Shown: positions 3,674 to 63,456, numbered from the stretch's first letter. The stretch is 64,000 nucleotides of DNA from Naegleria gruberi (GCA_000004985.1 GG738869.1), one strand, 5' to 3'. Numbers and translations: made by a program. The notes: generated by a model not told the origin, from the sequence alone.

Positions 3674-6600
3674 ATGTCGCGCCCGATTTCTTTCTCAAAT
3701 CGACACAATGTTCGAGGGGTGGCGATGTTGTATGTTGGTGGCTTATTGATGATGTTGATGATGATGATAGTTTTGGGATTTGGTGTTCAGGAGGGATCGT
3801 GTACGGTGTATGAAGTGAGAAATTCGACTTCCTTGTGGGACATTGTTCATGGAAATAAGTTGGTACCTGGTGATGAAGGTAAGTATCATGATTTATTCAT
3901 CATTCAATTTGGATGATATGGTGATTAGTGGTATTGAGAGAGGGCAATTATACATGCTATTATCAAAGTACTTGGTATAGAAATATTGTATTGAAAGGTC
4001 TTACTAATGCTCCTATTACTATTAGAGCTGCCAGTGGAGAGAAGGTTTTGGTCGAAGGAGATTTGAATGCTAGTCAAAATTTGTTGAATTTTAATGTAGA
4101 AAACTTTATTCTGAAAGGTATTGAATTTAGATATGGTGATAGAGGACTGAGATTTTTTGGTGCTAGCAATGTTCTATTGGAAGATTTACACATTCATGAT
4201 ACCAGTGATGTTGGTATGGCAATGAACGATCGTGATGTTACCTATTCTAATGTTACAATTAGGGAAGCTTTTGTGTTTTTACTTTATTAGAAACTGGATG
4301 AAAACAGACACGTTCAAATCCACCACACTCATGGTACTGGAGAGTGCTTCTACTTGGGCTGTAATGATGATGCTTGTCGTTTGATTAATTCACTTATTGA
4401 ATATAATTATTGCCATCATACATGTTGCGTTCAAGGTGATGGTATCGAAGTGAAGAGAGGTTCCTACAATAATGTTATTCGCCACAATGTCATTCACGAT
4501 ACTCACTATCCTGGAATTATTGTGTACGGTGCCAACAATGGTATTCCAAATATTATTGATTCCAACATTATTTGGAACGCTGGTGATAATGGTATTCAAA
4601 TTGCTGCTAATACCATTGCTCGTAACAATATTGTACTCAACTCAAAGATGAATGGTATTAGTATTCAACCTAATCAAGGCAATCCAACAGCTGTTATTTT
4701 GGAACATAACACTGTCATTGGAGCTCTCAGTGGGTCGTGTCTCTCTACTTATAGTACATACATTGGTTCAGAGTTTGTGATTGCAAACAATGCATTCTAT
4801 TGTGAGAATGCTAGTGCAATTTCTGAAACCAATGCAAACTCCAAAACTGTCTATCTTTCTAATGTTGTGAAAGGAAAAGTTACAAGCCAATATGCCAGCA
4901 ATATTATTTATGGAACTGGGTTGAGGGATTTTACCAGTACTGCTTCTCTTCCTTTCAACACTTATCCTTCCCTTGGTTCGTCCTTACTTGGAGTTTCAAC
5001 CTACATGGCTAATACATCAACTCCTTTGGATTTTGATGGTCGTGACAGAAGTGCAGCCTCACGTATTGATGCAGGTGCTTATCAACGGGTTGCTCAAAAC
5101 TCACCAACATGGATTCCAGTAGCTGGTTTCAAAGATGGTTGGAGCAGTCCTGCTCAATCAACTTCTCCAAAGCGTGTAAAGCCTGTTCCTTCAGATAATG
5201 CACATTACAATAGAACAACTTTTATCATCACTCCACAAAATGGTTCTTCATTATTTGACTTGATGAGCACTTTACAACCTGGAGACACCTTATTGGTACG
5301 AGCAGGCACTTATCCTGTTAAATTTGCCAATGCTTGGTTTACCAAGATTGTCCTCTCTGGATCTCCATCAAATCCAATTACTGTTTCTGCATGGCCTGGT
5401 GAAAGAGTTGTTTTGTATGGTGATCCATACGGATCTCAAAACATAATCAACTTGGAAGTTATGTACTTTGTCTTCAGAGGTTTTGAAATGGTTTATGGTT
5501 CCAGAGGAATTAGACTTCATGAATCCTCTCATTCAATCTTTGAAGACTTGAACGTGCACCACACTTGGGCAAATGCAATCTCTGCAAATGATAAGGGTGT
5601 TCATTATCAAAATATTACATTCAGAAATAATCGGGTTGCTCATACTCATGGTACTGGAGAATGTTTTTATTTGGGTTGCCAAGATGCTGCTTGTATCTTT
5701 TCAGATTCTCTCATTGAAGGAAATCTATGTGAATACACGTGTTGTGAACAAGGTGATGGTATTGAACTAAAGCATGGTTCTTACAATAACATAGTTAGAA
5801 ATAACGTTGTTCACGACACACCATATCCAGGTATTACCACTTATACTACTGGGGGCAATGCTCCAAATATTATTGAGGGAAATTTCATTTTTAATACTGG
5901 TGATAATGGTATTCAATGTACATCAGGTCAAATTATTCGAAACAATATCATTGTCAATGCAAGCATCAATGGTATTGATATTCACGATGATGGAGCTGTT
6001 TCTGATCTTACCATCACTCATAACACTGTAATTAACGCCAAAATTGCTTGTTTTTCTGCTGGTGGTTTACAAACAGCTTCAAACGTAATTATTGCAAACA
6101 ATGCTTTGTTTTGTAAGTTTCATACTTTAAATGATTAACTAATCATTATAGGTGACAACTCTCAATACGGATATTATGAGAGATATTTATCTGATAAGAA
6201 GACTAGCACTTTTTATTCGGCAAGAAACTATTATTCAGGAAAAACAAATGGTGTTGGCATTGATTTGGTAAAGGTCAATAACAGTTCTCATGACATACTG
6301 TTGGGTATTGATTTACTGAATGCCTATCCAACATCGATCAGTAACCTTATTGGAGCGGGTAGCCTAAAGTATTCAACACCTTTGGATTTTAATGGAAATT
6401 CCAGATCATCAACTCCAGATGTTGGCGCTTATCAATATTCAACCCCTTCAAATCCAGGTTGGGTTGCTAAAGGATGGTTCAAGAATGGATATAACTCAGT
6501 ATCCGTGTCAGGAAATTGGGAATATCCAAAGAATGTCCTTATTCCTCAAGACGACGATTCTTATATTGGAATGGTTTATCACATCACAGAAGCCAATTAT

Positions 6601-8077
6601 TCATCTTCAAACTGCAAGTATGAAAATATATGGAAAACCATGGCATTGTTGAAACCTGGAGATACTATGATTTTCCATTCAGGAACATTACTAACCCAAG
6701 TCTGTGGGCATGGTTCTTTCTACAGAAGATTAACGGTTATTGGTAGCCCAAATCGTCCAGTGGTAATTAAGGTTGCGGATGGAGAAAGTGTAACAATTCA
6801 AGGCGACATCGGTCAGTCACAAAATATCATGGATGTTGCTTTTTACAATGTCCTTTTTAAAGGATTCAATATGAAATATGGATCCAGAGGTCAGTATCAT
6901 TTTTGAGAAATATTAACTTTTGACAGGTCTTAGAGTCTATGAAGCCCAAAACACAACATTTGAAGGATTGGAAATTTCTGAAACAGCAGATGTTGCTTTC
7001 GCAGGAAACGATCTAAGAGGAGATTACAACAATGTAACTATCAGAAGAGTTAAAGTTCACCACACGCATGGTACAGGGGAATGTTTCTATTTGGGTTGTA
7101 ATTTTGGTGAGTGCATTTGGAGAAATTCCATCATTGAGTACAACCATTGTTCGTAAGTTTCATTGTTTTTTTGAGATACTAAGAAAAAATCATTTAGACA
7201 CACTTGTTGTGAACAAGGTGATGGTATAGAATTAAAGGCTGGTTCGTATGGAAATATTATTCGCCACAATGTAATTCATGATACTATCTATCCTGGAATC
7301 ACATTGTACACTCCAATGGAGGGCAAGCCACCAAATGTTGTCTATGGTAATATTGTGTGGAATACTCAAGATAATGGAATACAAGTAACAGGAAATACAA
7401 TTCTCATGAATAATATTGTAATGAATGCCAAATATTATGGAATTTCAATTCAAGAAAATCAACAGAGGGTGAACGGACTTGGTAACATTGAAAATGTTGC
7501 AATTCTCCACAATACAGTTGTTGGGGTAAGCTCTAAAACCAGTGGAGCTTGTTTTGCCACTAGTGGAACAAATTCTGGAAAAGGAAACATTGTAATTGCT
7601 GGAAATGCCTTTTACTGTTCAGATGCCAAGGCAACACGTGAAGTTAATGTTCATCCAAACACTAAGTATGGTATTAATGTTGTTAGCGGAACCAGTACAA
7701 TGTCAGGTACCTTAATTGGCGACTTGGTGTCAGACTTTTTGGATGTTTCTTCAATTCCTTACAATTTGTATCCAAGAAAGGGAGGGAAATTATATGGCTC
7801 ATCAAATCTCACAATTTACGATCTAGTTTCAAAAGATTTCAATGGTCTTGTTAGATCTTCACAAAGAATGGATGTTGGTGCCCTTCAATATATTGAAGGA
7901 AAAGATAACAACCCAGGTTGGATTCCAAAGGATGAATTCAAACCATTTACTGATCTTTCGCCTCTTGCAAGTCAGTCCACCAATACCACAATGTCCGATG
8001 CCCAAATAATTCTCAATAATGTAACTCTCAACTATTTTTTGGTCATTCTAATGGTATTTGTTTCAATTTGCTTATAA
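3674..8077 (+). CDS. large secreted, probably GPI-anchored, right-handed parallel beta-helix (PbH1, pectin-lyase fold) repeat protein with three tandem modules. Proposed exons are 3674-3878, 3929-4274, 4308-6112, 6152-6889, 6927-7152 and 7198-8077.
   Basis: N-terminal signal anchor and C-terminal hydrophobic tail. PbH1-type repeats such as NNVIRHNVIHDT and NGIQIAANTI recur. A motif HHTHGTGECFYLGC...EYN.C..TCC.QGDGIE.K.GSYNN recurs three times (about 4310, 5650, 7050). Six track ORFs join through GT..AG introns of 50, 33 (candidate), 39, 37 and 45 nt with phases preserved. The 33-nt candidate contains the in-frame TAG at 4288-4290. Confidence 0.7.
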
Positions 8078-14513: not shown

Positions 14514-14631
14514 GACTACAGCACCACAGGTTCCCAAGTTGTCTCCAACCTCAGTACTGATGTGGCTCGACGATGCTTAACTTCTCAAATCGGACGGGAT
14601 GAGGTGCATTCATCGTGATATGGCCGTAGCC
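14514..14631 (-). rRNA. 5S ribosomal RNA gene, about 118 nt
   Basis: The minus strand reads GGCTACGGCCATATCACGATGAATGCACCTCATCCCGTCCGATTTGAGAAGTTAAGCATCGTCGAGCCACATCAGTACTGAGGTTGGAGACAACTTGGGAACCTGTGGTGCTGTAGTC. Helix I pairs GGCUACGGC with GCUGUAGUC. Conserved 5S blocks CGGCCATA, TCCCGTCCGAT, AGTTAAGC, AGTACT and TGGGAA..GGTGCTGTAG are present. No ORF crosses it. Confidence 0.85.
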
Positions 14632-14883
14632 GTCTACTTCATTAAAATCACTCTTTTATTCCTTCCTCAACTTTAAGTATTGCTTAACCATCATCCTTGT
14701 TAAAACTCCTTCTTATTCTCCTCCTGTCAGCTTCATCTTGCAAATGCACGTTATCCAAATTATCAAATCTCAAGAAATCGCTTCAATAAATTACTACAAC
14801 ATGAACGTTGAAGCCTTTTTGAGCGTTTTTAAAAAGAATATTCAAAACACTTCACGAATAAGCTCAAAAAAAAAATATCAAAG

Positions 14884-15471
14884 ATGCCAGCCTACAAGAA
14901 AGCACAACAATACGATTCCGACGACTCTGAAGAACAACAAGAAGAACAAGAAGTCATTGAAGAAGCTGAAGAAGAAATTCAAGACGTTAACGATGCTTCT
15001 GAAGATGAAAATGCTGATTCTGATGATGATATGCCAAAGAATAAGCCATTGAAGAAGCACGGTTTCAATGGTGGTAACCGTGGAGGTTTTGGTGGTGATA
15101 GAGAAGGTGGCCGTGGTGGCTTCAGAGGTGGAAGAGGTGGCCGTGGTGGTCGTGGAGGATTCAACAGAGATGGTCCACGTGGTATTGAAAAGCAAGATAA
15201 GATGGGAGGTGGTTTCAGAGGTGGCCGTGGTGGTTTTGGTGGCGATAGAGGTGGCCGTGGTGGTCGTGGTGGCTTCAGAGGAGGTCGTGGTGGTAGTTTT
15301 GGTGGTGATAGAGATGGAGGAAGAGGTGGTTTCAGAGGAGGTAGAGGTGGTGGCCGTGGTGGTGGCAGAGGTGGTTTTGGTGGTGATAGAGGTGGCCGTG
15401 GTGGTGGTCGTGGAGGATTCAGAGGAGGTAGAGGTGGTCGTGGTGGTAGAGGTGGTTTCAACAGAGATTAA
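14884..15471 (+). CDS. glycine/arginine-rich (RGG/GAR) protein with an acidic Ser/Asp/Glu-rich N-terminus, nucleolar-type
   Basis: 195-aa ORF. The N-terminal 60 aa are D/E/S-rich, followed by repeats of GGRGGFRGGRGGRGG. Overlapping alternate-frame ORFs are artefacts of the GGN repeats. Confidence 0.6.
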   Translation: MPAYKKAQQYDSDDSEEQQEEQEVIEEAEEEIQDVNDASEDENADSDDDMPKNKPLKKHGFNGGNRGGFGGDREGGRGGFRGGRGGRGGRGGFNRDGPRGIEKQDKMGGGFRGGRGGFGGDRGGRGGRGGFRGGRGGSFGGDRDGGRGGFRGGRGGGRGGGRGGFGGDRGGRGGGRGGFRGGRGGRGGRGGFNRD

Positions 15472-16111
15472 TTTCTTTATTCACCCTAGAACCATTTCAA
15501 AAGAACCTATAGTTGTAGTGCTATCATTCCTGTTATCTTTGTGGAGTGAATTAATACTGCTGCAATGGTTCTTTTCTCTATTGTTACCAAGATTTTTGGT
15601 GACATTTTCTCTCAACACTTGTTTATACACTTTAGGTCCAACTCAAATTCCCTCAACAAACTTGAAAGTCTGAGATGAGCCTGTCTCAGCTAAATTGAAA
15701 CAGGTCTATTTAATAACTAGGTCTGATTGGTCTTACTTGTTTGCTTGACCCATGCTAAATATTCATTTATTATAATATTATCAAGTTTGTTCATTATTTT
15801 AAAAAGCCACACACAGTTCGTATGTATGAGGGAAGCTATGAATTGATTCAAATATCAATCTAGCACAAAATCGCAAGTCAGATATCATGGCTGACAACAA
15901 GCAAACAGACCAATGTTATGTTTCAACGAGTTGGATGAATGTGGTGTGAATAGTTGGGAAATATGTCCAATGTTTGAATAGGCAATAATGTGGAATATTT
16001 GGAAGTTGGCAAGATAGCAACTTGAATTGTTCGGAAAGTTTGTTGTGGAATTACTCGAGGAAATATTCACAAATTAGGATTTTGTTAGGAATTTATTAGG
16101 AGGATAATTGG

Positions 16112-18494: not shown

Positions 18495-19060
18495 CTAGTT
18501 GTGAGTTTTCTTATTTGGAGAGCTAGTATTCATTTCTTGGGTTTGTTCGGTAGTGAGATATTTCTCAACTTGATCAACTTGTGGATACCATAAATTTGAA
18601 ATTAGTATAGAAACAAGATCTATTCTTTTCTTTAGGTTAAAGTGACTATATGAACCAAAATATGACAAGGTATAAGCCAGCTTAATGTTTTCATCAACAG
18701 GACATACAAATTGCACTTTGTTGGTTTTCCAGTCACGCCTAATATTTGTAATTCTTTGTGCCATTCCTCAAGTGGGCTCTTTATCAATTTTCTTGCAGTA
18801 AACGCCAAAGTCAATTGCAGGTCCAGTAATTAAAGGGATGAAATCTTTGTGCAAAGAGTGACGGCTGTACGAAACAGACGAATCTTACCTAATTAGTTTG
18901 ATAAATTTATGGTTTTTGTACTCATCAATTGATAAACGAATTTTCTTATCATTAATAAATAAACCAACATGTTCCAATCCTTTTCTCAATTCCTGCAAAT
19001 TGTTGTTCTTAAAAATGGTTGTAAACTTTTGTAGTTTTATTTGCCCTAATCTGCTGTTTT
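18495..19060 (-). pseudogene. degenerate coding remnant or unrecognised multi-exon gene (tentative)
   Basis: The minus strand has protein-like segments in one frame (...INDKKIRLSIDEYKNHKFIKLIR, then RHSLHKDFIPLITGPAIDFGVYCKKIDKEPT, then GMAQRITNIRRDWKTNKVQFVCPVDENIKLAYTLSYFGSYSHFNLKKRIDL...). They are interrupted by a 24-nt GT..AG segment containing TAA (18864-18887) and one in-frame TGA. Confidence 0.25.
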
Positions 19061-19119
19061 TTAAAAGAAATATCGTTTGGAATTCACAACAGAAACACGG
19101 AATTGTAAATTCGAAAAAA

Positions 19120-19437
19120 ATGGAGGAAAAAATTCCTGCGATTTTTCATCGAGAAGTAATCACAAAATTTGATTTTCTACCCAAGCTAAAGCATTCGACT
19201 ATTGCAAGACATTCAGAATTTCAAAAATTCCTATCAAATTTTCTACGCGAATACAATTCTTCAAAGAACCAAATTCCTTCAAGACGATATGGTAAATATG
19301 CAACCACTAAAGAAGTGAGTGCCATCATCAAGGAAATTCTAGAGTGGTACTGGCTAGATACGGAGGAGGAGAAGGATAGCACTGCTCTTGGATTAATTCT
19401 GGAGAGAATGGGATTTCCGAATCATGTGATTAGTTAA
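19120..19437 (+). CDS. small ORF immediately upstream of the RdRP, in the same frame. It is either a separate small gene, a uORF, or a 5' exon of the RdRP.
   Basis: ATG at 19120 after an A-run. 106 aa ending at TAA 19435-19437. The RdRP ORF continues in the same frame 9 nt later. Confidence 0.3.
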   Translation: MEEKIPAIFHREVITKFDFLPKLKHSTIARHSEFQKFLSNFLREYNSSKNQIPSRRYGKYATTKEVSAIIKEILEWYWLDTEEEKDSTALGLILERMGFPNHVIS

Positions 19438-19563
19438 GGTCTGGAAGTGTGTAATTTTATTGGTCATTTCCATTTGGATACTTGTTTGGTTTTCTTGTTA
19501 TCTTCTTATAAGTGGTTGCTGAATGAATCCTTTTTCAAGAAACAACAACACAATAGCAATTTC

Positions 19564-22500
19564 ATGGGCAAGATTAATGATGGTGAATGTGTTAATGCTT
19601 TCAATTATGTTAGAGATTTGGAACGTGCAAGAGAACAGTTTGATTCATCGTATTCGGAAAGAACAACTTCTATTGGTGATGATGAAATTCAACATGTTCT
19701 TGATGGACATATGGTCAATTGGATTTTATTACTCCAAAGAGTGTTAAAGATGAGACCAGAATTGCAGAGGCAGATAAAGGAGGATGGAGGTGCTGATTGG
19801 TTGGTTCGTGCAGTGTCTTTAAAAACACATCACCCAGTAATTCATAATATGGCAAGTGCTAAGAAGTTTCTCCAATTAATGAAGAAATTTACAACTTTAC
19901 AAGGTCAACCGTATGCAGAAATGAATTTTGATGAAAAATTTGAAATGCTCAAGGTTGTGACAAGAACATTTCTTGTTACAATGAATGGTTTAGAGCAAGT
20001 CCACAAATGGTTTTTGGATGGTAATCAGGATTTATCTGTGAATCAACTAGAGAATGATAGAGATCACTTTCGTATAAGAATAGTTGAAATTTGCATTAGA
20101 AATTCAACAAGCTTACAAGGACTTGCAGGAGACTTATACTCAGACAATAGTGATCCAAGAGCAATTGTCAAACTCAGAAGTTCACCGAAAGGAAAATACT
20201 CAAAGAGTCGTTATAGATTATATTTTGGTGTTAACACAACCTTGACTGTATTATTTTCCTTTCCAAGAATGGGATTGACATCTCAATTATTTCTTTCAGA
20301 AAATTCAGATTTGGAAAGTTTAAAGGATTTGAAAACTGTTGCAGGAAATTATTGGGGAGAAGAAACAGTTCTCAAGATTAAGCAAGATTTTTGTAATAGC
20401 ATCAATAATGGTAAAAAGCCAACAGTTTCAAAGCAAGATTTTTCAAAATGCAAACATTTGGAAAGAATTTCACAAGAATTTAGAGCTGCTCGAGTTTTGA
20501 AAAGTTATCAAGATTCTCCAATTACAATTGCCGGTTATTCATTTCATCAATTATGTCAAAATACCAGTGGAATGCATTCGTATAAGTATACTTATTATTG
20601 TGGAGATTTGGCTGATGAATTGCCATTGGGAGTGGAAGATGTGAAGGAGTTTTTTATTCCTAGTCATCTCAATCCAGATTTGTACAAACCAGAAAATCAA
20701 TTGAAATTAACAGTTCGTTTATCGCTCTTAAATACTCCAATATCTCCTACGATTAATATTTCAGAATATCAAGTTATTGAAGATGTTGGTCTTTTCACAG
20801 ATGGTTGTGGTTTCATTTCTCCTGATTTAGCAAGAGAAATTTATAGAAAAATTAAACAGGCAGAATCTAGAGAGAAAGTTCACGTATTTGAGAATGCACA
20901 ATACATGGTTGATGTACAGATGATTTATCAAGATTCTGATCCAGTTGAGGATGATATGGATGATAATGTTCCTTCAGCATTTCAGATTCGTTTTAGAGGA
21001 GCAAAAGGCATGCTCCTACAAAATCCAAATGTGAAAGGAATTGTATTAAGAGAATCTATGGTTAAATTCAACGTAGATTTAGATGAAGATCTCGATGAGG
21101 AAGACGAAAGTCTTTCGAATATCCATGTAGTCGGTTATTCAGAACCATCTAATTTTGCATTCGCCAACTCAACAATTTTGTACATGATGAGTGGATGTGT
21201 TGATGGAGGTGAGAAATTTGAGGGAATAATTATGAATATGTGGAAGGATTATGTTAATGACATTTTAAAAACCTATTCTAATGAAGATACTTCCCAATTG
21301 ATGAAGAAATATTTCAAAGAAGGCGATTTTCATGCCTTAAACATTTTCGGATTGACCAAAGATGTTGCACTCGCTTTCCTTGCAGGACCATTCAGAACTC
21401 AATTGTTGAATCTTAAACTCCCTATTCAAAATGCTCGGAGAGTTTACGGAGTTTGTGATCCACTCGAAGTGTTAGAACCAGATGAAGTTTTTGTTAGAAT
21501 TAGAATGGAAGATGGCACTTTGAAAACCTTGGAAGGAACTATTGCCATCACTAAAGAGCCATGTCTTCATAGAGGTGATTTACGTTTGCTGAAAGCTAAG
21601 AAAATAGAGAGTTTAGAATATCTTTCAGAAGTAATTGTTTTTCCTATTAAGGGAGAAAAAAGACCTATTCCTAACATGATTACAGGAAGTGATTTGGATG
21701 GTGACAAATATCTTGTCATTTGGGATGAACCTCTTGTTTCATCTTTCGTCCAACAATTCGAACCTGGAAACTTTGATGAAGAAATTGAAGGAGAAAAACG
21801 TAATTTCGAACCAGATGTTTTTAAGGACTGGATAGGATTGAGACATTCCTATGTAGATTCGTATGGATATGAATGGAGTAAAGGTGAGAATTGGAAAACC
21901 ATGCAAAGACTTTCAGATATTGTAAATATGGCTGTCGATGCACCTAAAAAGGGGAAAACATTCAAGGCAGGTGCAATGGAGAAGGATATTGTTAGAAACT
22001 TTCCGAAATATCCTCATTTCCATAATTCAAAGACAAAGGAAGCTGTTAGAGTGAGTACTTCAGTTGTTGGGAAAATGTATGATTTTGCAATTGATAGAGT
22101 TACTGAGCGTTTTAAATTTCAGCCAGTTACTGACAAGCGTCAAACATCAACTGACGACAAGGAATATTTATTCTTGGATAATTTATACCAAGTATTGCGA
22201 AGGAATAAGGATATTTCAGTCAATCAGTTTTTGAACTTTATTTGGAAACATTTTTCAAACATTTTATTGAGAAGCACTACAATTCAATTTGCTTCTGAGT
22301 TTTTAGATTCGTTTTGGAGATTCTTATGTATGTTGACAATACGAAAAGAGAAAACTATTATATTGTGTTGTCTTAACACAACTGTTGATAAGGTTAATAA
22401 CAGTTCTATGAATGCAATTATTAGCGAAATGACAAAGAGCGATAATTTAGTACTAATGGTTCAAGGAATATCCGAAACTAAACTCAAATTCAAAGAAGAT

Positions 22501-24555
22501 TTGCAAAATGACAAGATACATGACTCCTCTGCATGTTCTTTATTCAAATTTTCCAACTCGAATGTTGAATTTATTCATTTCCTTTTTTATGAAATATTCT
22601 TTGATGCAGCTTCAAGAATCCAAATTGATCTAGGGTACAATTTGCTTACCAATTATACCCTATCTCAAACCCTATTTGAAAATATTGTAGAACCATCGAC
22701 TTTGAATCCAGTTCTCTTTAAAAAACCAAAAACTATCTTTGAAATAATTTACAAAGCTTGCAATGGCAAAGACTCAGATAGAAAGAAGCATGCATTGTAC
22801 ATTGTTGGACTTTTATTCAAGAATGGTATAATTTTACCTAGAAACTATGATTTGGCTATCAAATGCTTTAAACTGGCACTTTCAAAAGAGAACAATATCC
22901 GAATTGGATTTATACCATATTTGTATAATAGTGAAAAACGACCTGTAATGAAAGAATTGAAGATTCTGGCAAAGGCAGGATATGCTGAAGCACAATACAA
23001 CTTGGGAAGATTAAGCTATTTTGATGGCGATCAATGGTCTGCTTTGGAATGGTTGAAAAAAGCTGCTTTTCAATGTGTTCTTAATATTGAAAACAGAGGA
23101 TTGGATAAGAAGAACACTCTTTACTTTTTATCAAATCTCTACAGGGATGGTACTATTGTTGAGTGGAATAATGATAGATATCTTCAATTATTGGAAGAAT
23201 CTGCTAAATTAGGATCTATTGATGCAATGTACAAGATTGGAAGAAGGATGGAGTTGACCAAACAGTATTCATTTGCTTGTTTTTGGTATGAGAGAGCAGC
23301 CTATGAGGGAATATTAGAAAATTATTTGCAAGGTTATGGAATGAAAAACTCTTGTCGATTCAGCTTGGAAATTGATGAATATGGAATTGATTCAATGAAT
23401 AGATTGCCACCTCTTCCATTGCAAAATGATCTACAAGTTGAAATTCAACTTGATATTTCAATAGAAAGTCCTCTCTTGAAGAAAAATATGCTATTTGTGC
23501 AGAGTTCAAATCCAGTTTTCCAAACTTTTTGTAATGATGGAACAATTATTCCACCAAACGAAATTGAAGAATTTACCAAGATTCTCCCAAGTTCTAATAT
23601 ATTACAAAAGAAATATGAAAGGAAATATGAAAGCATCCATGACTCAGCAAAGAGAACTATGGAAAAAGCAGAAAAAATGCTGAAATTGGCTAACCAAACT
23701 ATTGCTCATATAGATAGAATTTTAAACAAGGGAAAGAGTTCAGATTCGAAAGAATCTCCTCTTGAAAATGAGAGTAAAGAAGAAGTAGAAGAAATATCTA
23801 CTGAACAAATATCAACTGAACAAGAAGATACAAAAGAATCTATTATTCCACACACAAAATGGAAACTGATTTATAGAGGAAGTAAGGATGGATACGAATC
23901 TAATGATTTCCATAGAAAGTGTGATGATAAAGGTTCCACTTTCATCATAGTCAAGACTAAAGAGGACGAAATATTTGGAGGATATACAACCCAAACTTGG
24001 AAAATTCCCCAAGCAAATATCTTTGGACACACACAACGAAACGATGAAAATGCATTCTTATTCATTCGTTCCAAGAGTCGCAAATATTTTAAACTTCCAA
24101 TCACAAATCAACCAAGTATTGATTGTACTCACGCAAGATTAATTGACTTTCTTGATTTTACCATACCAAATAATTGTGATATAATTCCAGGACATACTAA
24201 TTTCGGAATGAATTATCAACTTCCAAAATGGTCTAAGGGAAATGGATTCAGTTTTAGTGAATCTCTTGATAATAGAAGAAGTTTTTATGTGGAAGAAATT
24301 GAAGTTTATTCATTAATAGATTCTGAAGATGAAAATAGTCCACTCATGTCTGGATCAATCAATCTTTCTCAGATAAGAACAGATGGTCCTATGTTTAATT
24401 GGGATGATTATTTGAGCTACGTTAGAGCACGAAATAGTGATCCTTATGGTACAAGAGCATACACAGAAAGTGTAAGACAAGCAAGAATTTCAAGTGATGA
24501 AGGAATTGAAAGATTGAAAGACAAGTTGCGTCTAATGGGAGTTTTCAAGGAATAG
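19564..24555 (+). CDS. cellular RNA-dependent RNA polymerase (RDR/QDE-1/EGO-1 family) fused to C-terminal Sel1-like repeats and a TLDc domain
   Basis: Uninterrupted 1702-codon ORF (19447-24555); the first ATG is at 19564. The catalytic core has AFQIRFRGAKGMLLQNP and the cellular-RdRP signature GSDLDGDKYLVIWDE (DLDGD, about 21690). Residues around 22900-23300 carry Sel1-type repeats (AEAQYNLGRLSYF..., AMYKIGRRMEL...). The C-terminus (about 23850-24300) has WKLIYRGSKDGYESNDFHRKCDDKGSTFIIVKTKEDEIFGGYTTQTWK, typical of TLDc. Confidence 0.8.
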   Translation: MGKINDGECVNAFNYVRDLERAREQFDSSYSERTTSIGDDEIQHVLDGHMVNWILLLQRVLKMRPELQRQIKEDGGADWLVRAVSLKTHHPVIHNMASAKKFLQLMKKFTTLQGQPYAEMNFDEKFEMLKVVTRTFLVTMNGLEQVHKWFLDGNQDLSVNQLENDRDHFRIRIVEICIRNSTSLQGLAGDLYSDNSDPRAIVKLRSSPKGKYSKSRYRLYFGVNTTLTVLFSFPRMGLTSQLFLSENSDLESLKDLKTVAGNYWGEETVLKIKQDFCNSINNGKKPTVSKQDFSKCKHLERISQEFRAARVLKSYQDSPITIAGYSFHQLCQNTSGMHSYKYTYYCGDLADELPLGVEDVKEFFIPSHLNPDLYKPENQLKLTVRLSLLNTPISPTINISEYQVIEDVGLFTDGCGFISPDLAREIYRKIKQAESREKVHVFENAQYMVDVQMIYQDSDPVEDDMDDNVPSAFQIRFRGAKGMLLQNPNVKGIVLRESMVKFNVDLDEDLDEEDESLSNIHVVGYSEPSNFAFANSTILYMMSGCVDGGEKFEGIIMNMWKDYVNDILKTYSNEDTSQLMKKYFKEGDFHALNIFGLTKDVALAFLAGPFRTQLLNLKLPIQNARRVYGVCDPLEVLEPDEVFVRIRMEDGTLKTLEGTIAITKEPCLHRGDLRLLKAKKIESLEYLSEVIVFPIKGEKRPIPNMITGSDLDGDKYLVIWDEPLVSSFVQQFEPGNFDEEIEGEKRNFEPDVFKDWIGLRHSYVDSYGYEWSKGENWKTMQRLSDIVNMAVDAPKKGKTFKAGAMEKDIVRNFPKYPHFHNSKTKEAVRVSTSVVGKMYDFAIDRVTERFKFQPVTDKRQTSTDDKEYLFLDNLYQVLRRNKDISVNQFLNFIWKHFSNILLRSTTIQFASEFLDSFWRFLCMLTIRKEKTIILCCLNTTVDKVNNSSMNAIISEMTKSDNLVLMVQGISETKLKFKEDLQNDKIHDSSACSLFKFSNSNVEFIHFLFYEIFFDAASRIQIDLGYNLLTNYTLSQTLFENIVEPSTLNPVLFKKPKTIFEIIYKACNGKDSDRKKHALYIVGLLFKNGIILPRNYDLAIKCFKLALSKENNIRIGFIPYLYNSEKRPVMKELKILAKAGYAEAQYNLGRLSYFDGDQWSALEWLKKAAFQCVLNIENRGLDKKNTLYFLSNLYRDGTIVEWNNDRYLQLLEESAKLGSIDAMYKIGRRMELTKQYSFACFWYERAAYEGILENYLQGYGMKNSCRFSLEIDEYGIDSMNRLPPLPLQNDLQVEIQLDISIESPLLKKNMLFVQSSNPVFQTFCNDGTIIPPNEIEEFTKILPSSNILQKKYERKYESIHDSAKRTMEKAEKMLKLANQTIAHIDRILNKGKSSDSKESPLENESKEEVEEISTEQISTEQEDTKESIIPHTKWKLIYRGSKDGYESNDFHRKCDDKGSTFIIVKTKEDEIFGGYTTQTWKIPQANIFGHTQRNDENAFLFIRSKSRKYFKLPITNQPSIDCTHARLIDFLDFTIPNNCDIIPGHTNFGMNYQLPKWSKGNGFSFSESLDNRRSFYVEEIEVYSLIDSEDENSPLMSGSINLSQIRTDGPMFNWDDYLSYVRARNSDPYGTRAYTESVRQARISSDEGIERLKDKLRLMGVFKE

Positions 24556-46447: not shown

Positions 46448-48149
46448 ATGTCCTCCCTATTGCCCAAAACACAGGAAGACCAACAAGCAACAATAGTAGT
46501 AGAATTGGAGGAGAAGAATAAATTGAAAAGAGTTTTGGATCAGGTAGAATCATCTTCATCAATAGAGGAAAAACCACTAGTCAGCAATAAGAAGAGAATT
46601 AAATTATTTGATGAAATTGAGAGTAAACAGGGTGTTTGTTGGCACTTTAGAAAGAAGGGATTTTGCAAATTGGGCTCTGAATGTAAATTCCGACATATTA
46701 AAGTGGATGATTATGGATTAATTATTGAAAATGATTTGTCATCTTCTAATAATTCATCATCTTTGGATAATAATTCAAATACAACATTAGGAAATAATTT
46801 AGAGGAACCTACATTATCATTAACAATAGAACCATCATCACTCTCTAATAGTACATCATTAAATGTTGAACAACCAAGGAGAAAACTTTGCTATTGGATT
46901 TCAAAGGCTAAAGAAACAAAATCAGCAACCTCAGCTTTACGAAGAACTTACGAAGAGAATGGATTTAATTTAATACTCTCCACTGATAATACCGAAACAG
47001 AGAATTATACAGCAGTTTTCTGGGGACATACCTTCCCTCATACTTCAGACCTTTGGAAAAAGTTGCCATCCTACACTTACATTAATCACTTCCCTAATTC
47101 ACACCACTTATCTAATAAGAGTTTGATGGCAATGAATTTTCAGGAAATATCTAAGGATAATTCCTCAATCAAATTCAAATCAGAGTTTATTCCTCATACA
47201 TTTTACTTTCCCTCACAAATTAATTTATTCTTCAATTATTTAAAGACTGAAAAGGATGATATTTGGATTATTAAACCACAAGGTTCAGGCGAAGGAAGAG
47301 GAATCAGATTATTTTCCAATTCTAAACAAATTTTACAGGAGGAATTTCCAACAATACCAACCTCAGAAATAGAGTCTGGGTTTGTCTCTGAGGAAACTTT
47401 GAAAAGGAAGGAGATTAGAAAACACAAGATTGTTGTTTGTAAATATGTAAGAAATCCATTGTTAATTAATGGTAAAAAATTCGATATGAGATTGTATGTT
47501 TTGGCTGTGGGATCCTTCGAAGGACCTTTCAACAACTCCACATAGAGCCTATCTCTATAAGGATGGTATTGTAAGATTGGCCAGCGAGGACTATACGGAA
47601 TCAGAGGAAACTCTCACTAATGCATTCATACACATTACTAACAATACTGTAAATGATAAGAAGAATCGTCCTCAACATGAAACAGCCAAGTCCCAATATG
47701 GATTCTTTTGTAATATGAATTTGAATGAATTGGAAGAATACTTCCAAAAGAACTCTTTGGATTACCAACTCTTCTGGGATAGACTCAAAAATCTAGTTTC
47801 AGAATCATTGAAAATGACAATATTTAACACTGAAAAACAAGATGATACATTCAAAGCCTGCTCATCGAAATGTTTTGAAATTTATGGATTTGATGTAATG
47901 ATAGACAAGAATTTGCAACCTTATTTATTGGAAGTTAACTCAATGCCTGACCTTTCTGCTGTCAGTAATACTAGCCACTTGGTATTAAACAAGGATTTCA
48001 CCATCAAATCTAAAATGCTTGTCAATGCCCTCAATCTCATTGGCATAACAATCGAGGATGAAAACACAGTCCTGAGCCGATTCATCAACATTTCAGATTA
48101 CAACACTGATGACTATCTCAATAATTTTGAGAAAATAATTTATCAATAA
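46448..48149 (+). CDS. tubulin-tyrosine-ligase-like (TTL/TTLL family) protein with an N-terminal CCCH zinc finger; an apparent +1 frameshift near 47505-47545 may make it a pseudogene
   Basis: CWHFRKKGFCKLGSECKFRH is a C-x8-C-x5-C-x3-H finger. TTL motifs WIIKPQGSGEGRGIRLF, KFDMRLYVLAVGSF, HRAYLYKDGIVRLASEDY and FEIYGFDVMIDKNLQPYLLEVNSMPDLS are present. The two halves lie in different frames (ORFs 46433-47545 and 47496-48149) with no room for an intron. Confidence 0.6.
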
Positions 48150-50781: not shown

Positions 50782-53700
50782 ATGGCCAGAACTGTAGACA
50801 ATATGATCATGTTGGAGGATGTCTCTGAACGAGGCATTCTCACCAACTTGAAGAATATGTATAAGAAGGATAATATTTATGTAGGTTTCTTTAGTTTACT
50901 TTCGAATACAAACATAAAAGACATTTATTGGAGAAGTTTTAATATCTGTCAATCCGTTCAAACATTTGAACATTTATAACGAACAAAAACTTCGTCAATA
51001 TAGATCACACTGTATGTTTATTCTTCATTTCGAATAGTAGTATTCTAATCATCATCACACTAAATAGATCCTTTCGAATTACCTCCTCACGTTTATTCTA
51101 TTGCAGAAAGTGCTTACAGAAATTTGATTTCGGAAAGAGTTTCTCAATCCATTATCATTTCAGGAGAATCAGGTGCAGGTAAGCAAAAAAATCTTTTCTT
51201 TTCATAACTTTGAAATTTTCATAACTTGGGAAAAATAAATTCATAGGTAAAACTGAAGCTGCAAAACAAATCATGAATTATATTGCTGCCGTGAGTGGTG
51301 GAGAAAAAGAAGGAGAAAATAGGGTCAAGGCACAAATCTTGAAAAGTAATCCATTGTTAGAAGCTTTTGGTAATGCCAAGACAGTTAGGTAAGTTTTTAA
51401 GGATTTTACTGTAAATTCTAATGGTTTATATGTAATTTGTTGTGTGTACTGATGGTTTGAATTGATTTTATTACTGTATATATATAGAAATAACAATAGT
51501 TCTAGATTTGGTAAATATATGGAAATTTTCTTTTCAGATTTGAATCAAATTATGGGAGGTCAAATTATGCAATTCTTATTGGAAAAGTCTAGAATTGTTT
51601 CTCAATCACAAGGTGAACGTAATTTTCACATTTTCTATCAAATTTTCACAGATGATGCTTTGGCTAAAAAGTTAAACTTGACAAAACCTCAAGATTACAA
51701 ATATTTGAACAATACTTATACTGTTGATACAGTTGATGATAAACAAGGTTTCCGTGAGACAAAAGAAGCTCTCGATTTCATTGGAGTTAAAGAAGAAACT
51801 CAATTCCAAATTTGGGAAATGGTTGCTGGTATTTTACATTTGGGAAATATTGAATTCCAAGGTGTTGAAAAGAATGCAAAGGGTGGAAGAAAGGATGGAT
51901 CTGAAATTATTGATAAGAATCCATTGAGATTGTGTGCTAAATGCCTCCATGTTGATGAACAAATGTTGGAAACTTCACTCACCACTAAAACTGTCGAAGC
52001 TGGTGGTAGAAATTCTGTCTATGCTTCACCATTGAGTGTTGATGGAGCTATCAATGCAAGAGATGCATTGGCAAAGGGTCTCTATAGAAGATTGTTTGAT
52101 TGGATTGTAAAATCAGTTAACGAATCAATTACCTTACCGTCATTGATTAATAGAAGATTGTCAACTATGAATGGCAAACCAGGAAAGAAGGGAGAAAAGC
52201 TTAATACCAAACCAAATGAATTTGTAACTATTGGTATTCTAGATATTTATGGTTTTGAAATTTTTGAAACCAACTCACTCGAACAATTAACAATTAACTA
52301 CATTAACGAAAGATTACAGCAAATGTTTATTGAACTAACTTTGAAAGAAGAACAAGAAGAGTACATTAGAGAAGGTATCAAATGGGAAAAGATCCCATAC
52401 AGTGATAACAAACCTTGTGTTGAACTCTTTGATTCCAAACTTGGTATTTTCAATTTATTGAACGAGACAAGTTTATTGAGTAAGGGTGATGATGATTTCT
52501 TGAGAAAACTCAAGGAAAACAATGGAAAACATCCATTCATGGTTCCATTCGATAAGGTCATTTCAAAGGAACAAGAAAAGAACTTTAAGGTTAAACATTA
52601 TGCTGGTATTGTAGAGTATCACTCTCCAACATTTGTTGAAAAGAATTTGGATACCTTGTATCAAAATTTGGTCGCTCTTGCCTTGTCTTCAAGATCTGAT
52701 TTGATGGTTCAATTGTTTTCATCTGATAAGATTGCAACTGGTGGTAATAATGTTGCTGCTAAACCTCCAATGATTTGTACTCAATTCAAGAAGCAAGTTG
52801 ACCACTTGATGACCAAGCTCTACAATTGTAAACCACATTACATTAGATGTATCAAGCCAAACGATAGAAAGATTGGTAACTTGTTCGAAGATGAAATGGT
52901 TACTCACCAAATCAGATGTTTGGGTCTCTTGGAAAACGTATTGGTCAAGAGAGCTGGTTTCGTCTATAGACACAAGTTTGACTTCTTCCTTCATCACTAC
53001 AAGGTCACTACAAAGGAAACTTATCCATTCCTTGCCGACAGTTTCAGAGGTAATGAAATTGAGGCCTGTAAACATATTGCCCAAAATGTATTGAAATCTG
53101 GAGCTGATCACTCTAAAATGTTCCAAATTGGTAAAACCAAGATCTTTATCAAGAATCCGGAGACTGTATTCGCATTGGAAGAATTGAGAGATCGATGCTC
53201 CATTGATTGTGCCATTCAAATTCAAAGAAAATTCAGAAAATTCATTGCCAAGAAGAGAGCTGAAGAAAACAAACGTGAAATCAATAACATCTTTAACAAT
53301 CAAAAGAAGAGACGTCGTATCAGTTACAATAGAATTTATCAAGGTGATTATTTGAACTTTGCATTCAATTCTGAAATGGCCAAACTCTTAGCCAAACACA
53401 ATGACTCTATGATTCACTACTCTGGAAGAATTCAAAAGATTAACAATAGAAACAAGATTCAAGACAGAACCTTGGTCATTACTGAAAGTAACATTTACAA
53501 TATCGATTGGAATGATAAGAAGAATAAGATGAAACTCAAGAGAATATTGCCACTCTCAGATCTCATCAGTCTCAAAGTTTCTCCATTCACTGATGGTTAC
53601 TTTGTTCTATTCTTTGGTACAAGATATTGTTATTTCTTTAATTCTGATGATACTTCTGAAATTGTTTCAATTCTCATTAGAATTTTCAAACAAAAACAGA

Positions 53701-53879
53701 AAAAGATCCCAGTTGAAGTAGCTCAACAATTCGATTACAAACCAACTCTCAAAGAAACTAGAACTCTCAAATTCATTGAAGTTAGCGCCATTCCAAAAAA
53801 TGGTCCAATTGACAAGACTGGTAAATCAGAAATTACAGTTTCTATCATTCCAGCTGCTGAGGAAAAATACTACAAATAA
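50782..53879 (+). CDS. short-tailed class I myosin heavy chain. Exons 50782-50880, 50921-51011, 51068-51178, 51247-51388 and 51488-53879.
   Basis: Spliced product: ...NMYKKDNIY|[30 protein letters not shown]|[38 protein letters not shown]|KTEAAKQIM...[12 protein letters not shown]|[15 protein letters not shown].... The P-loop, switch regions, IQ motif ([15 protein letters not shown]) and a TH1 tail are present, with no SH3. Introns are 40, 56, 68 and 99 nt, all GT..AG. TAA stop. Confidence 0.9.
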
Positions 53880-61770: not shown

Positions 61771-63456
61771 ATGTCCAGAATAACTGCGTTCCAACAGGAT
61801 CAACCTGCTGTCTTTTCAGAACCGAGAATTTCCCACAAAAAGACAACCTCTCTGCTCGTTGATAGAAATCCGGAATTTTTGAAGGGAAAAACAGTTTTTC
61901 AAGCCTTCGGAGAACATCAATATGATGTACAGGGAAATATTAATAATTGTAAACATTTGCAGGTGGGAGAGTATTTTCTAAAGGTATCTAGTGGTGCTCA
62001 TCACACGTTTCTATTGACAAATTATGGAAATGTATTGAGTTTCGGAAGGTAGGTTTTATTGTTAAATAGATAGATGATATATGTAATTTTTGTAATTTAT
62101 GTTGACTATGATGATCAAATTAGAAATGGTGATGGTCAGTTAGGTTAGTACTATAATTGATGATCAGTATTCAAATTTTCTGTTCTGATCATTATCACAT
62201 GTTAATTTATTAATAATTATTATTCATTATTTGATTATATTTAATTATGATGATTATTATAATTGAAAATTCAGGAAATGGATCAATTGAATCAACTTTT
62301 AGAAAGGATATTCTACCAGTTTTTCCAAAATATGCCAATGAAGGAGAATCTGTTGTTGATGTTCAATGTGGATCCAATCACACAGTTATTTTGACCAATT
62401 TTTCGAATTGTCTTGGTTGTGGTTGGAATGAGTTCTTCCAACAGGGTCAGAAACGTCATGGTGTTCAAGTATCCAAGTTTGGGTATTTGGATATTGGAAA
62501 GCCAGTAATTATGGTAAGATGTGCTAATAATATGACCATTGTGCTTACAAAGGAAATGGAAATTTATGGAAGTGGACGAGTTGCTGCAACAATTACCTAT
62601 GAAGATTTTACTCTTCTTCAAGATTTTTCAGAGCTCTTATCAGATGAGGAAGTTATTACTGATATACAATGTGGATCTCAACACATCATCGTTTCTTCAA
62701 GTTTCAACAGAATTTTTGCATTTGGATCCAATGGTTTTACACAAATGGGAAAAAATGTCAAGGATATGGATAAATTTACTGAAATTACAAAGAATTTACC
62801 ATTTCCAAGAGATGAATTCAAGAGTTTCGCTACTGGATTATTGTTTACCATCTTTTTAACAAAGGGAGGTGGTGTTTACGCTTGTGGTTACAATGGATAT
62901 GGTCAATTGGGTACAGGTACCAGGACTGATCCAGAGGATTTTGTAAGAGTGAAAAATTTTTACAAAATTAAGAGTCAATCTCAAAGTGTTTTATCCAAAT
63001 TTGAAAAGAGGAAGGAATCAGAATATACTTGCTATAAGGCCTCACTCAATTCAGAAATTGGAAATAATGTCTATTACATTGATGGAAATGAAATTATTAA
63101 GAGCATCCATGCAGGCTCCTCACACACAATTTTTGTATCAAATATTGGAAATGTCTACACATGTGGATTCAACAAGGTAAGTATTGCATATGAGGAATTG
63201 TAAATGACTAATTTTCACATTAAAGTTTGGTCAATTGAGTCTTCCAACAGACGGAGATGATTATGCTGCAACATACTCTGCAACTCAAGTCGTTCTCTCG
63301 AGCCACTTGATCGATGTTCAAGTATTTGCCAATCCAAGTGCTAACATCACAATCTTAGCTGATAGACAACCAATTAATTCCTATATGAGCAATAATTTAA
63401 AGAAACGAGCAAGAGAAGGCGACCTTTCAGATATCATTCTCAAACACAAGCTTTAA
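61771..63456 (+). CDS. RCC1-repeat (regulator of chromosome condensation-like) protein. Exons 61771-62048, 62303-63176 and 63226-63456.
   Basis: Repeated RCC1 blades (GAHHTFLLTNYGNVLSFGR, CGSNHTVILTNFSNCLGCGWN, CGSQHIIVSSSFNRIFAFGSN, GYNGYGQLGTG, AGSSHTIFVSNIGNVYTCGFNK|FGQL). Introns are 62049-62302 (254 nt, GTAGGT...TTTTAG) and 63177-63225 (49 nt, GTAAGT...TTAAAG). Confidence 0.65.

Follow-up and report, generated by a model that had tools for sequence, protein, structure and literature searches.

An in-frame stop codon within a candidate 45-nt intron of a three-module beta-helix gene of Naegleria gruberi

Introduction

In human splicing mutations, a change at position +2 of a donor site can activate a nearby cryptic donor. 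Gene 60 of phage T4 represents a case of translational bypass. The tiny introns of ciliates, as reportedly described by Jaillon et al. in 2008, include ones of multiple-of-three length with in-frame stops, the retained forms being said to undergo nonsense-mediated decay. Surveillance of such multiple-of-three introns by nonsense-mediated decay has been described for the Paramecium type (PMC5014332).

This study concerns a stretch of 64,000 nucleotides of the genome of Naegleria gruberi (GCA_000004985.1, GG738869.1), hereafter the window, in which a gene for a right-handed beta-helix protein is interrupted by a single in-frame TAG. A first-pass annotation of the window had noted that the open reading frames 3928-4290 and 4354-6138 lie in one frame with this TAG as their only break, and that the stop is enclosed in a 33-nt GT..AG segment; direct reading agrees with it on both points, including the sequence of the segment. 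It had gone on to propose the 33-nt segment as a stop-containing mini-intron. The analysis presented here points to a longer unit sharing the same acceptor. Judged from the sequence, with a probability of about 0.6, the TAG lies inside an ordinary 45-nt spliceosomal intron at 4263-4307, the donor of which carries a G that would be a miscall, an allelic variant or a recent mutation.

The locus resembles the Paramecium-type tiny introns in its multiple-of-three length and in the premature stop, here TAG, that retention brings. In Paramecium, however, this is a statistical feature of the genome as a whole, with introns of about 25 nt, whereas the reference introns of the window are 37-99 nt long and all lie outside the range of ultra-short introns (about 15-30 nt); the N. 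gruberi genome is not of the tiny-intron type represented by Paramecium. The likeness to ciliates is a trivial one, namely that retention gives a stop, which is true of all multiple-of-three AT-rich introns here. With human +2 T>G donor mutations the locus shares a near-consensus donor with +2 as its only deviation and, 12 nt further on, an in-frame GT, the use of which would add four residues; it differs in that this cryptic donor is very weak and that a stronger GT, at 4273, is out of frame. As in phage T4 gene 60, a gap of about 45-50 nt with a stop inside it separates two synonymous codons, but at this locus, a nuclear eukaryotic gene, the stop is not adjacent to the putative take-off codon and no hairpin is predicted.

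Results and Discussion

General features of the gene

The window has a G+C content of 34%, and its myosin open reading frame (51462-53879) is 100% identical to N. gruberi myosin D2VG39, so the window is nuclear DNA of N. gruberi. The long open reading frames of the window end in TAA (27), TGA (13) and TAG (4), which fits the standard genetic code.

The interrupted gene is a putative surface-protein gene of N. gruberi, the product of which comprises 1,395 residues arranged in three modules with 40-46% mutual identity and matches the Pfam family PF13229 (Beta_helix). A hydrophobic stretch at the N-terminus and a hydrophobic tail at the C-terminus suggest that the protein may be anchored in a membrane. 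Four clear introns were recognised (Table 1), with 5' ends GTAAGT or GTCAGT and 3' ends TAG or CAG. Their removal leaves a coding sequence of 4,233 nt in a single frame with exactly one internal stop, the TAG under study, and the frame is open without any stop from 4291 to 6135. No other defect, either a second stop or a frameshift, was found in these 4.2 kb, corresponding to about 1,400 codons of AT-rich sequence, and both halves of module 1 are intact.

All four introns start with GT(A/C)AGT(A/T)TCAT, with TCAT at +8 to +11, and this tetranucleotide was found at those positions in none of the 10 remaining reference introns of the window. Alignments of the four over their whole lengths revealed no significant similarity.

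Table 1. Coordinates of the features of the beta-helix gene, and scores of splice variants of module 1 with the family profile HMM
Feature	Position	Strand	Description	Family HMM (bits)
Three-module right-handed beta-helix gene, coding span	3674..8077	+	ATG 3674 to TAA 8075-8077	
Intron 1	3879..3928	+	50 nt, GTAAGT..TAG; links open reading frames in frame	
Intron 2	6113..6151	+	39 nt, multiple of three, in-frame TAA	
Intron 3	6890..6926	+	37 nt, GTCAGT..CAG	
Intron 4	7153..7197	+	45 nt, multiple of three, in-frame TAA and TGA	
In-frame TAG	4288..4290	+	direct reading; sole interruption of the pair of open reading frames	
45-nt intron-like insertion	4263..4307	+	phase 2, AG/../A giving Arg; 5' dinucleotide GG	
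Donor-like motif (tag/)GGAAGCTTT	4263..4271	+	G for T at +2 (position 4264)	
Branch-site-like GAAAC	4290..4294	+	motif scan; A putatively about 15 nt upstream of the acceptor	
Acceptor GAAAACAG/aca	4300..4307	+	4.8 bits; reference introns 1.9-9.0; top 8.7% of AG sites	
33-nt GT..AG segment	4275..4307	+	reads GTTTTTACTTTATTAGAAACTGGATGAAAACAG; possible cryptic donor at 5' end	
45-nt removal	4263-4307			461.0
33-nt removal	4275-4307		8.9 bits under the 45-nt removal	452.1
18-nt removal	4273-4290			447.4
Unspliced				438.7

Homologues and origin of the gene

Module 1 is most similar to proteins with a single module, which come from Willaertia magna (44% identity), from N. lovaniensis (40%) and, at about 40%, from many Myxococcota. 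In the searched collection nothing exceeded 44% identity to module 1; the N. gruberi myosin encoded in the same window is present there at 100% identity. The apparent absence of the 4.4-kb beta-helix gene from the searched sets is probably due to its GG donor and in-frame stop. Outside Heterolobosea, the nearest relatives are beta-helix proteins of Myxococcota described as 'MYXO-CTERM domain-containing', with 40-50% identity, and this closeness suggests, on sequence similarity, a bacterial origin of the gene.

The gene was compared with homologue loci (L001 3001-4547, L002 3001-4518, L003 and L004). The N. gruberi gene has three modules, and the introns occupy different positions in each of them. 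The N. lovaniensis homologue has one intron of 83 nt, located elsewhere, and the Willaertia homologue is intronless; none of the homologues has an intron at the site of the TAG; every other intron of the gene likewise has no counterpart at its site. This distribution makes the introns look like gains that would have followed the transfer of the gene into the lineage. A metagenome scan for relatives of Naegleria returned two GC-rich bacterial loci only.

The stop lies in an insertion of 45 nt

Alignment of module 1 with both paralogous modules and 12 homologues revealed an insertion of 15 columns in module 1. This 15-residue (45-nt) insertion, which encloses the stop, is absent from both paralogous modules and from a larger set of 120 homologues, all of which show only gaps in the inserted columns. 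The NVTIR-to-HGTGEC span comprises 18 residues in 110 of the 120 homologues, 21 residues in nine, where the extra residues lie elsewhere, and 19 in one. In the raw sequence of the window the same span has 33 residues; removal of 45 nt reduces it to 18, the family mode, and removal of 33 nt to 22. No gaps were needed to align the two bacterial loci of the metagenome scan with the protein from which the 45 nt have been removed.

In order to compare the possible splice variants of module 1, they were scored with a family profile HMM built from the 120 homologues, and the 45-nt removal obtained the highest score (Table 1). Excisions of 18, 39 and 54 nt with GT..AG ends that finish at TAG 4290 were tried as well and rejected, having lower HMM scores and losing or adding conserved residues. 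In a confident AlphaFold model of the paralogous module 2 (pLDDT 94), the site corresponds to a two-residue turn between two beta-strands. On this model, the four residues left over by a 33-nt removal would lengthen this turn, which shows no variation within the family.

The first-pass annotation had described the product of the 33-nt removal as matching the paralogous module. The two differ in fact by four residues, EAFV, since the 33-nt removal gives NVTIR-EAFVHVQI-HHTHG, compared with NVTIR-RVKV-HHTHG in the module. The candidate junction peptides are NVTIRHVQIHH or NVTIREAFVHVQIHH. What holds of the earlier proposal is that the TAG is probably intronic and that the two open reading frames belong to one gene, as indicated by the intact halves of module 1 and by the position of the stop within an insertion unseen in homologues. 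The boundaries 4275-4307 are the weaker of two options, given the poor donor, the short length and the four extra residues.

Splice signals of the insertion

Donor sites were scored with a position weight matrix covering -3 to +9 and derived from 14 reference introns of 37-99 nt in the window. Eleven of these introns came from junctions of open reading frames and three from alignment of the annotated myosin protein, the latter having the donors GTAGGT, GTATGT and GTAAGC. The matrix is somewhat circular, as 11 of its 14 introns were chosen by a GT(A/C)AGT filter; the three added myosin introns agree with it, and a fourth myosin intron was already in the filtered set. The myosin gene also contains introns of 68 and 99 nt, and the earlier statement that local introns measure 37-56 nt is thus not quite accurate.

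Between the TAG and position 4340, AG occurs just once, in the CAG at 4305-4307, so that 4263-4307 is the one possible excision of 45 nt. This unit begins with GGAAGC, with GG at 4263-4264 where a canonical intron has GT, and direct reading finds no GT-AG, GC-AG or AT-AC excision of exactly 45 nt. With position +2 left out, TAG/GGAAGCTTT scores 10.2 bits, compared with 7.2-13.1 bits for the reference donors, and this score is reached by 0.016% of the positions in the window. The corresponding string with T at +2, GTAAGC, serves as a donor in the annotated myosin gene (position 51179). By chance, about a dozen G(A/C/G)AAGT-like strings in the coding sequence of the window attain such a score, and the donor argument therefore rests on the occurrence of the motif exactly 45 nt upstream of the acceptor.

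In other respects the 45-nt unit is close to the ordinary U2-type introns of N. gruberi, as found in this gene and in that for myosin D2VG39. It has the same length as intron 4 of its own gene, which is inside the local range of 37-99 nt, is similarly AT-rich (31% G+C), follows an exon ending in AG, and has a CAG acceptor and a branch-like A about 15 nt from its 3' end. The branch-like motif GAAAC resembles CAAAC in the annotated 40-nt intron of the myosin gene and the TAAC cores of other introns, and the distance from the donor to the branch-like A, about 31 nt, is as in the reference introns. The multiple-of-three length and the in-frame stop are also shared: each of the six multiple-of-three reference introns holds an in-frame stop when retained, and the special class of stop-containing mini-introns invoked in the first-pass annotation is not needed. 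The unit differs from ordinary introns in the G at +2, in its weaker branch motif and, compared with the other four introns of the gene, in having no TCAT at +8 to +11.

A search for a second copy of the 45-mer in the window found none, and a mobile or repeated element was rejected on this ground. Pairwise alignments of the 45-mer with the other introns, evaluated with shuffled sequences, gave no convincing similarity, the best p value being about 0.01 among 105 pairs; a common, introner-like origin of the introns was likewise rejected. Folding of the RNA around the stop predicted no stable local structure (z = -0.7).

Proposed interpretation

We infer that the 45-nt segment is, or recently was, spliced as a phase 2 intron interrupting module 1 of a bacterial-type beta-helix gene. 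Splicing of 4262 to 4308 would produce the working form of the gene, in which AG/A forms an Arg codon and the protein reads NVTI-R-HVQIHHTHGTGEC with the spacing typical of the family. If the intron were retained, the in-frame TAG would stop translation, as in the other multiple-of-three introns here. The G at 4264 would be due to an error of base calling, to a variant present in one haplotype or to very recent mutation of the donor. Naegleria has been described as a heterozygous diploid (PMC9928731), which makes an allelic variant at this position plausible. RNA-seq of N. gruberi exists under PRJEB23822 (PMC6142364).

Against the 45-nt intron stands the missing GT that defines a donor, as splicing from a GG donor would be unexpected; the homologues, as mentioned above, have no intron at this site. 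In this interpretation of a 45-nt intron, the 33-nt segment would offer at best a weak cryptic donor, 12 nt further downstream than the original. Should the donor mutation be real, splicing may shift to the in-frame GT at 4275, weak as it is, or the intron may be retained, with TAG truncating the protein.

Alternative explanations

One alternative, which we regard as unlikely, takes the reference sequence as correct and the locus as dead or null: the intron could not be spliced, or the 45 nt would be an insertion of non-intronic nature, and translation would yield a fragment of about 200 residues ending at the TAG. The GG donor is what would be expected of such a copy, the gene seems to be unannotated, and the searched collection has other N. 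gruberi proteins and nothing above 44% identity to module 1; loss of a surface protein is plausible in NEG-M, a laboratory strain kept in culture for a long time. The rest of the gene argues otherwise. A pseudogene would be expected to show several disabling changes or relaxed constraint, but one stop is all that was found in about 1,400 AT-rich codons, and the other four introns are intact. This speaks against an old pseudogene, and inactivation, if it took place, must have been very recent. A non-intronic origin of the 45 nt is made unlikely by the donor-like motif, the acceptor and the intron-like length, and no other copy of the 45-mer is present in the window.

We consider it improbable that 4275-4307 is a productive 33-nt GT..AG intron, with the protein gaining EAFV. 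Such an intron may stem from mutation of the donor at 4263, splicing having moved to the next in-frame GT. Enumeration of the GT..AG options showed that this segment, with its GTTTTT...CAG ends, is the sole canonical excision by which the TAG is lost while the frame and the conserved residues are preserved. It uses the same good acceptor as the 45-nt unit, the intactness of the remaining gene suggests that selection is still acting, and a bulge of four residues in a two-residue turn between strands is conceivable. The signals of the segment, on the other hand, are poor. Its donor, TGT/GTTTTTACT, scores -8.2 bits with the matrix from the 14 local introns, a value equalled or exceeded by 84% of the GT sites in the window, and has T at +3 and +5, a base found at these positions in none of the 14 reference donors. 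The length of 33 nt is below that of the shortest reference intron (37 nt), in what is a small sample from one window, and only about 18 nt separate the donor from the branch-like A, compared with at least 26 nt in the short reference introns. At 4273 there is a cryptic GT of better quality, but its use would cause a frameshift. The protein evidence points in the same direction, given that none of the 120 homologues has an insertion there and that the family HMM prefers the 45-nt removal.

The presence of a multiple-of-three GT..AG segment around the stop carries little information by itself. In the coding sequence of the window, segments of this kind 18-60 nt long cover 60% of 5,365 codons, and those of up to 36 nt cover 29%, so the property is no more than expected by chance.

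It is correspondingly improbable that the G at 4264 is real in a working gene, a T>G change at +2 having shifted splicing to the GT 12 nt downstream. Such splicing would represent the sliding of an intron boundary caught in progress. Splicing of a GG-AG intron as such is less likely.

Finally, decoding or skipping of the stop by the ribosome, either by readthrough of the TAG or by bypass from AGG 4261-4263 to AGA 4306-4308, is very unlikely: Arg would be specified by take-off and landing codons alike, and the ribosome would skip a distance equal to the 45-nt deletion, but no stop follows the putative take-off codon, the RNA has no stable local structure, the usage of all three stops at the ends of long open reading frames is consistent with the standard code, readthrough would add 15 residues to a turn invariant in 120 homologues, and we know of no translational bypass in nuclear genes.

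Other sites in the window

A 24-nt GT..AG segment on the minus strand had been put forward in the first-pass annotation as a similar mini-intron. The segment exists, at 18888..18865 (-), one position away from where it had been placed. Its interpretation as a mini-intron found no support, since the frame lacks an ATG and runs into another stop after about 100 nt. This frame has no Pfam match; the donor, GTAAGA, is decent, and the length of 24 nt is far under the local intron range. The same GTAAGA at 18888 (-) also joins in frame to an acceptor 135 nt downstream (18888-18754), linking two small open reading frames; the joined frame has no start codon and no Pfam match.

Several other sites with related features were observed. 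The open reading frames 18862-19434 and 19438-24552 (+), upstream of and within an RNA-dependent RNA polymerase gene, are in the same frame and are split by TAA 19435-19437. Two in-frame GT..AG options span this stop, one of 87 nt (19426-19512, donor GTGATT) and one of 147 nt (19292-19438, donor GTAAAT). High donor scores were also obtained for GT sites at 62049 (+), where GTAGGTTTT lies upstream of the open reading frame 62247-63203, and at 47080, 8979 and 12718 (-). The stretch 14630-15670 is of low complexity and contains several open frames over the two strands; its translations are repetitive, rich in Glu and Val or in Thr and Ser, and it mimics a pair of same-frame open reading frames split by one stop.

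Significance

No new class of intron is opened by this locus, as stop-containing introns of multiple-of-three length are the rule here. The main import of the finding is for annotation: a gene for a three-module beta-helix protein of 1,395 residues is seemingly missing from the protein sets searched, and recognition of the non-GT..AG intron allows it to be rescued. With a real G at 4264, the gene would provide a small natural experiment on an intron-definition spliceosome facing a +2 donor mutation, the intron being either retained, with a premature stop, or spliced from a cryptic donor, with insertion of four residues.
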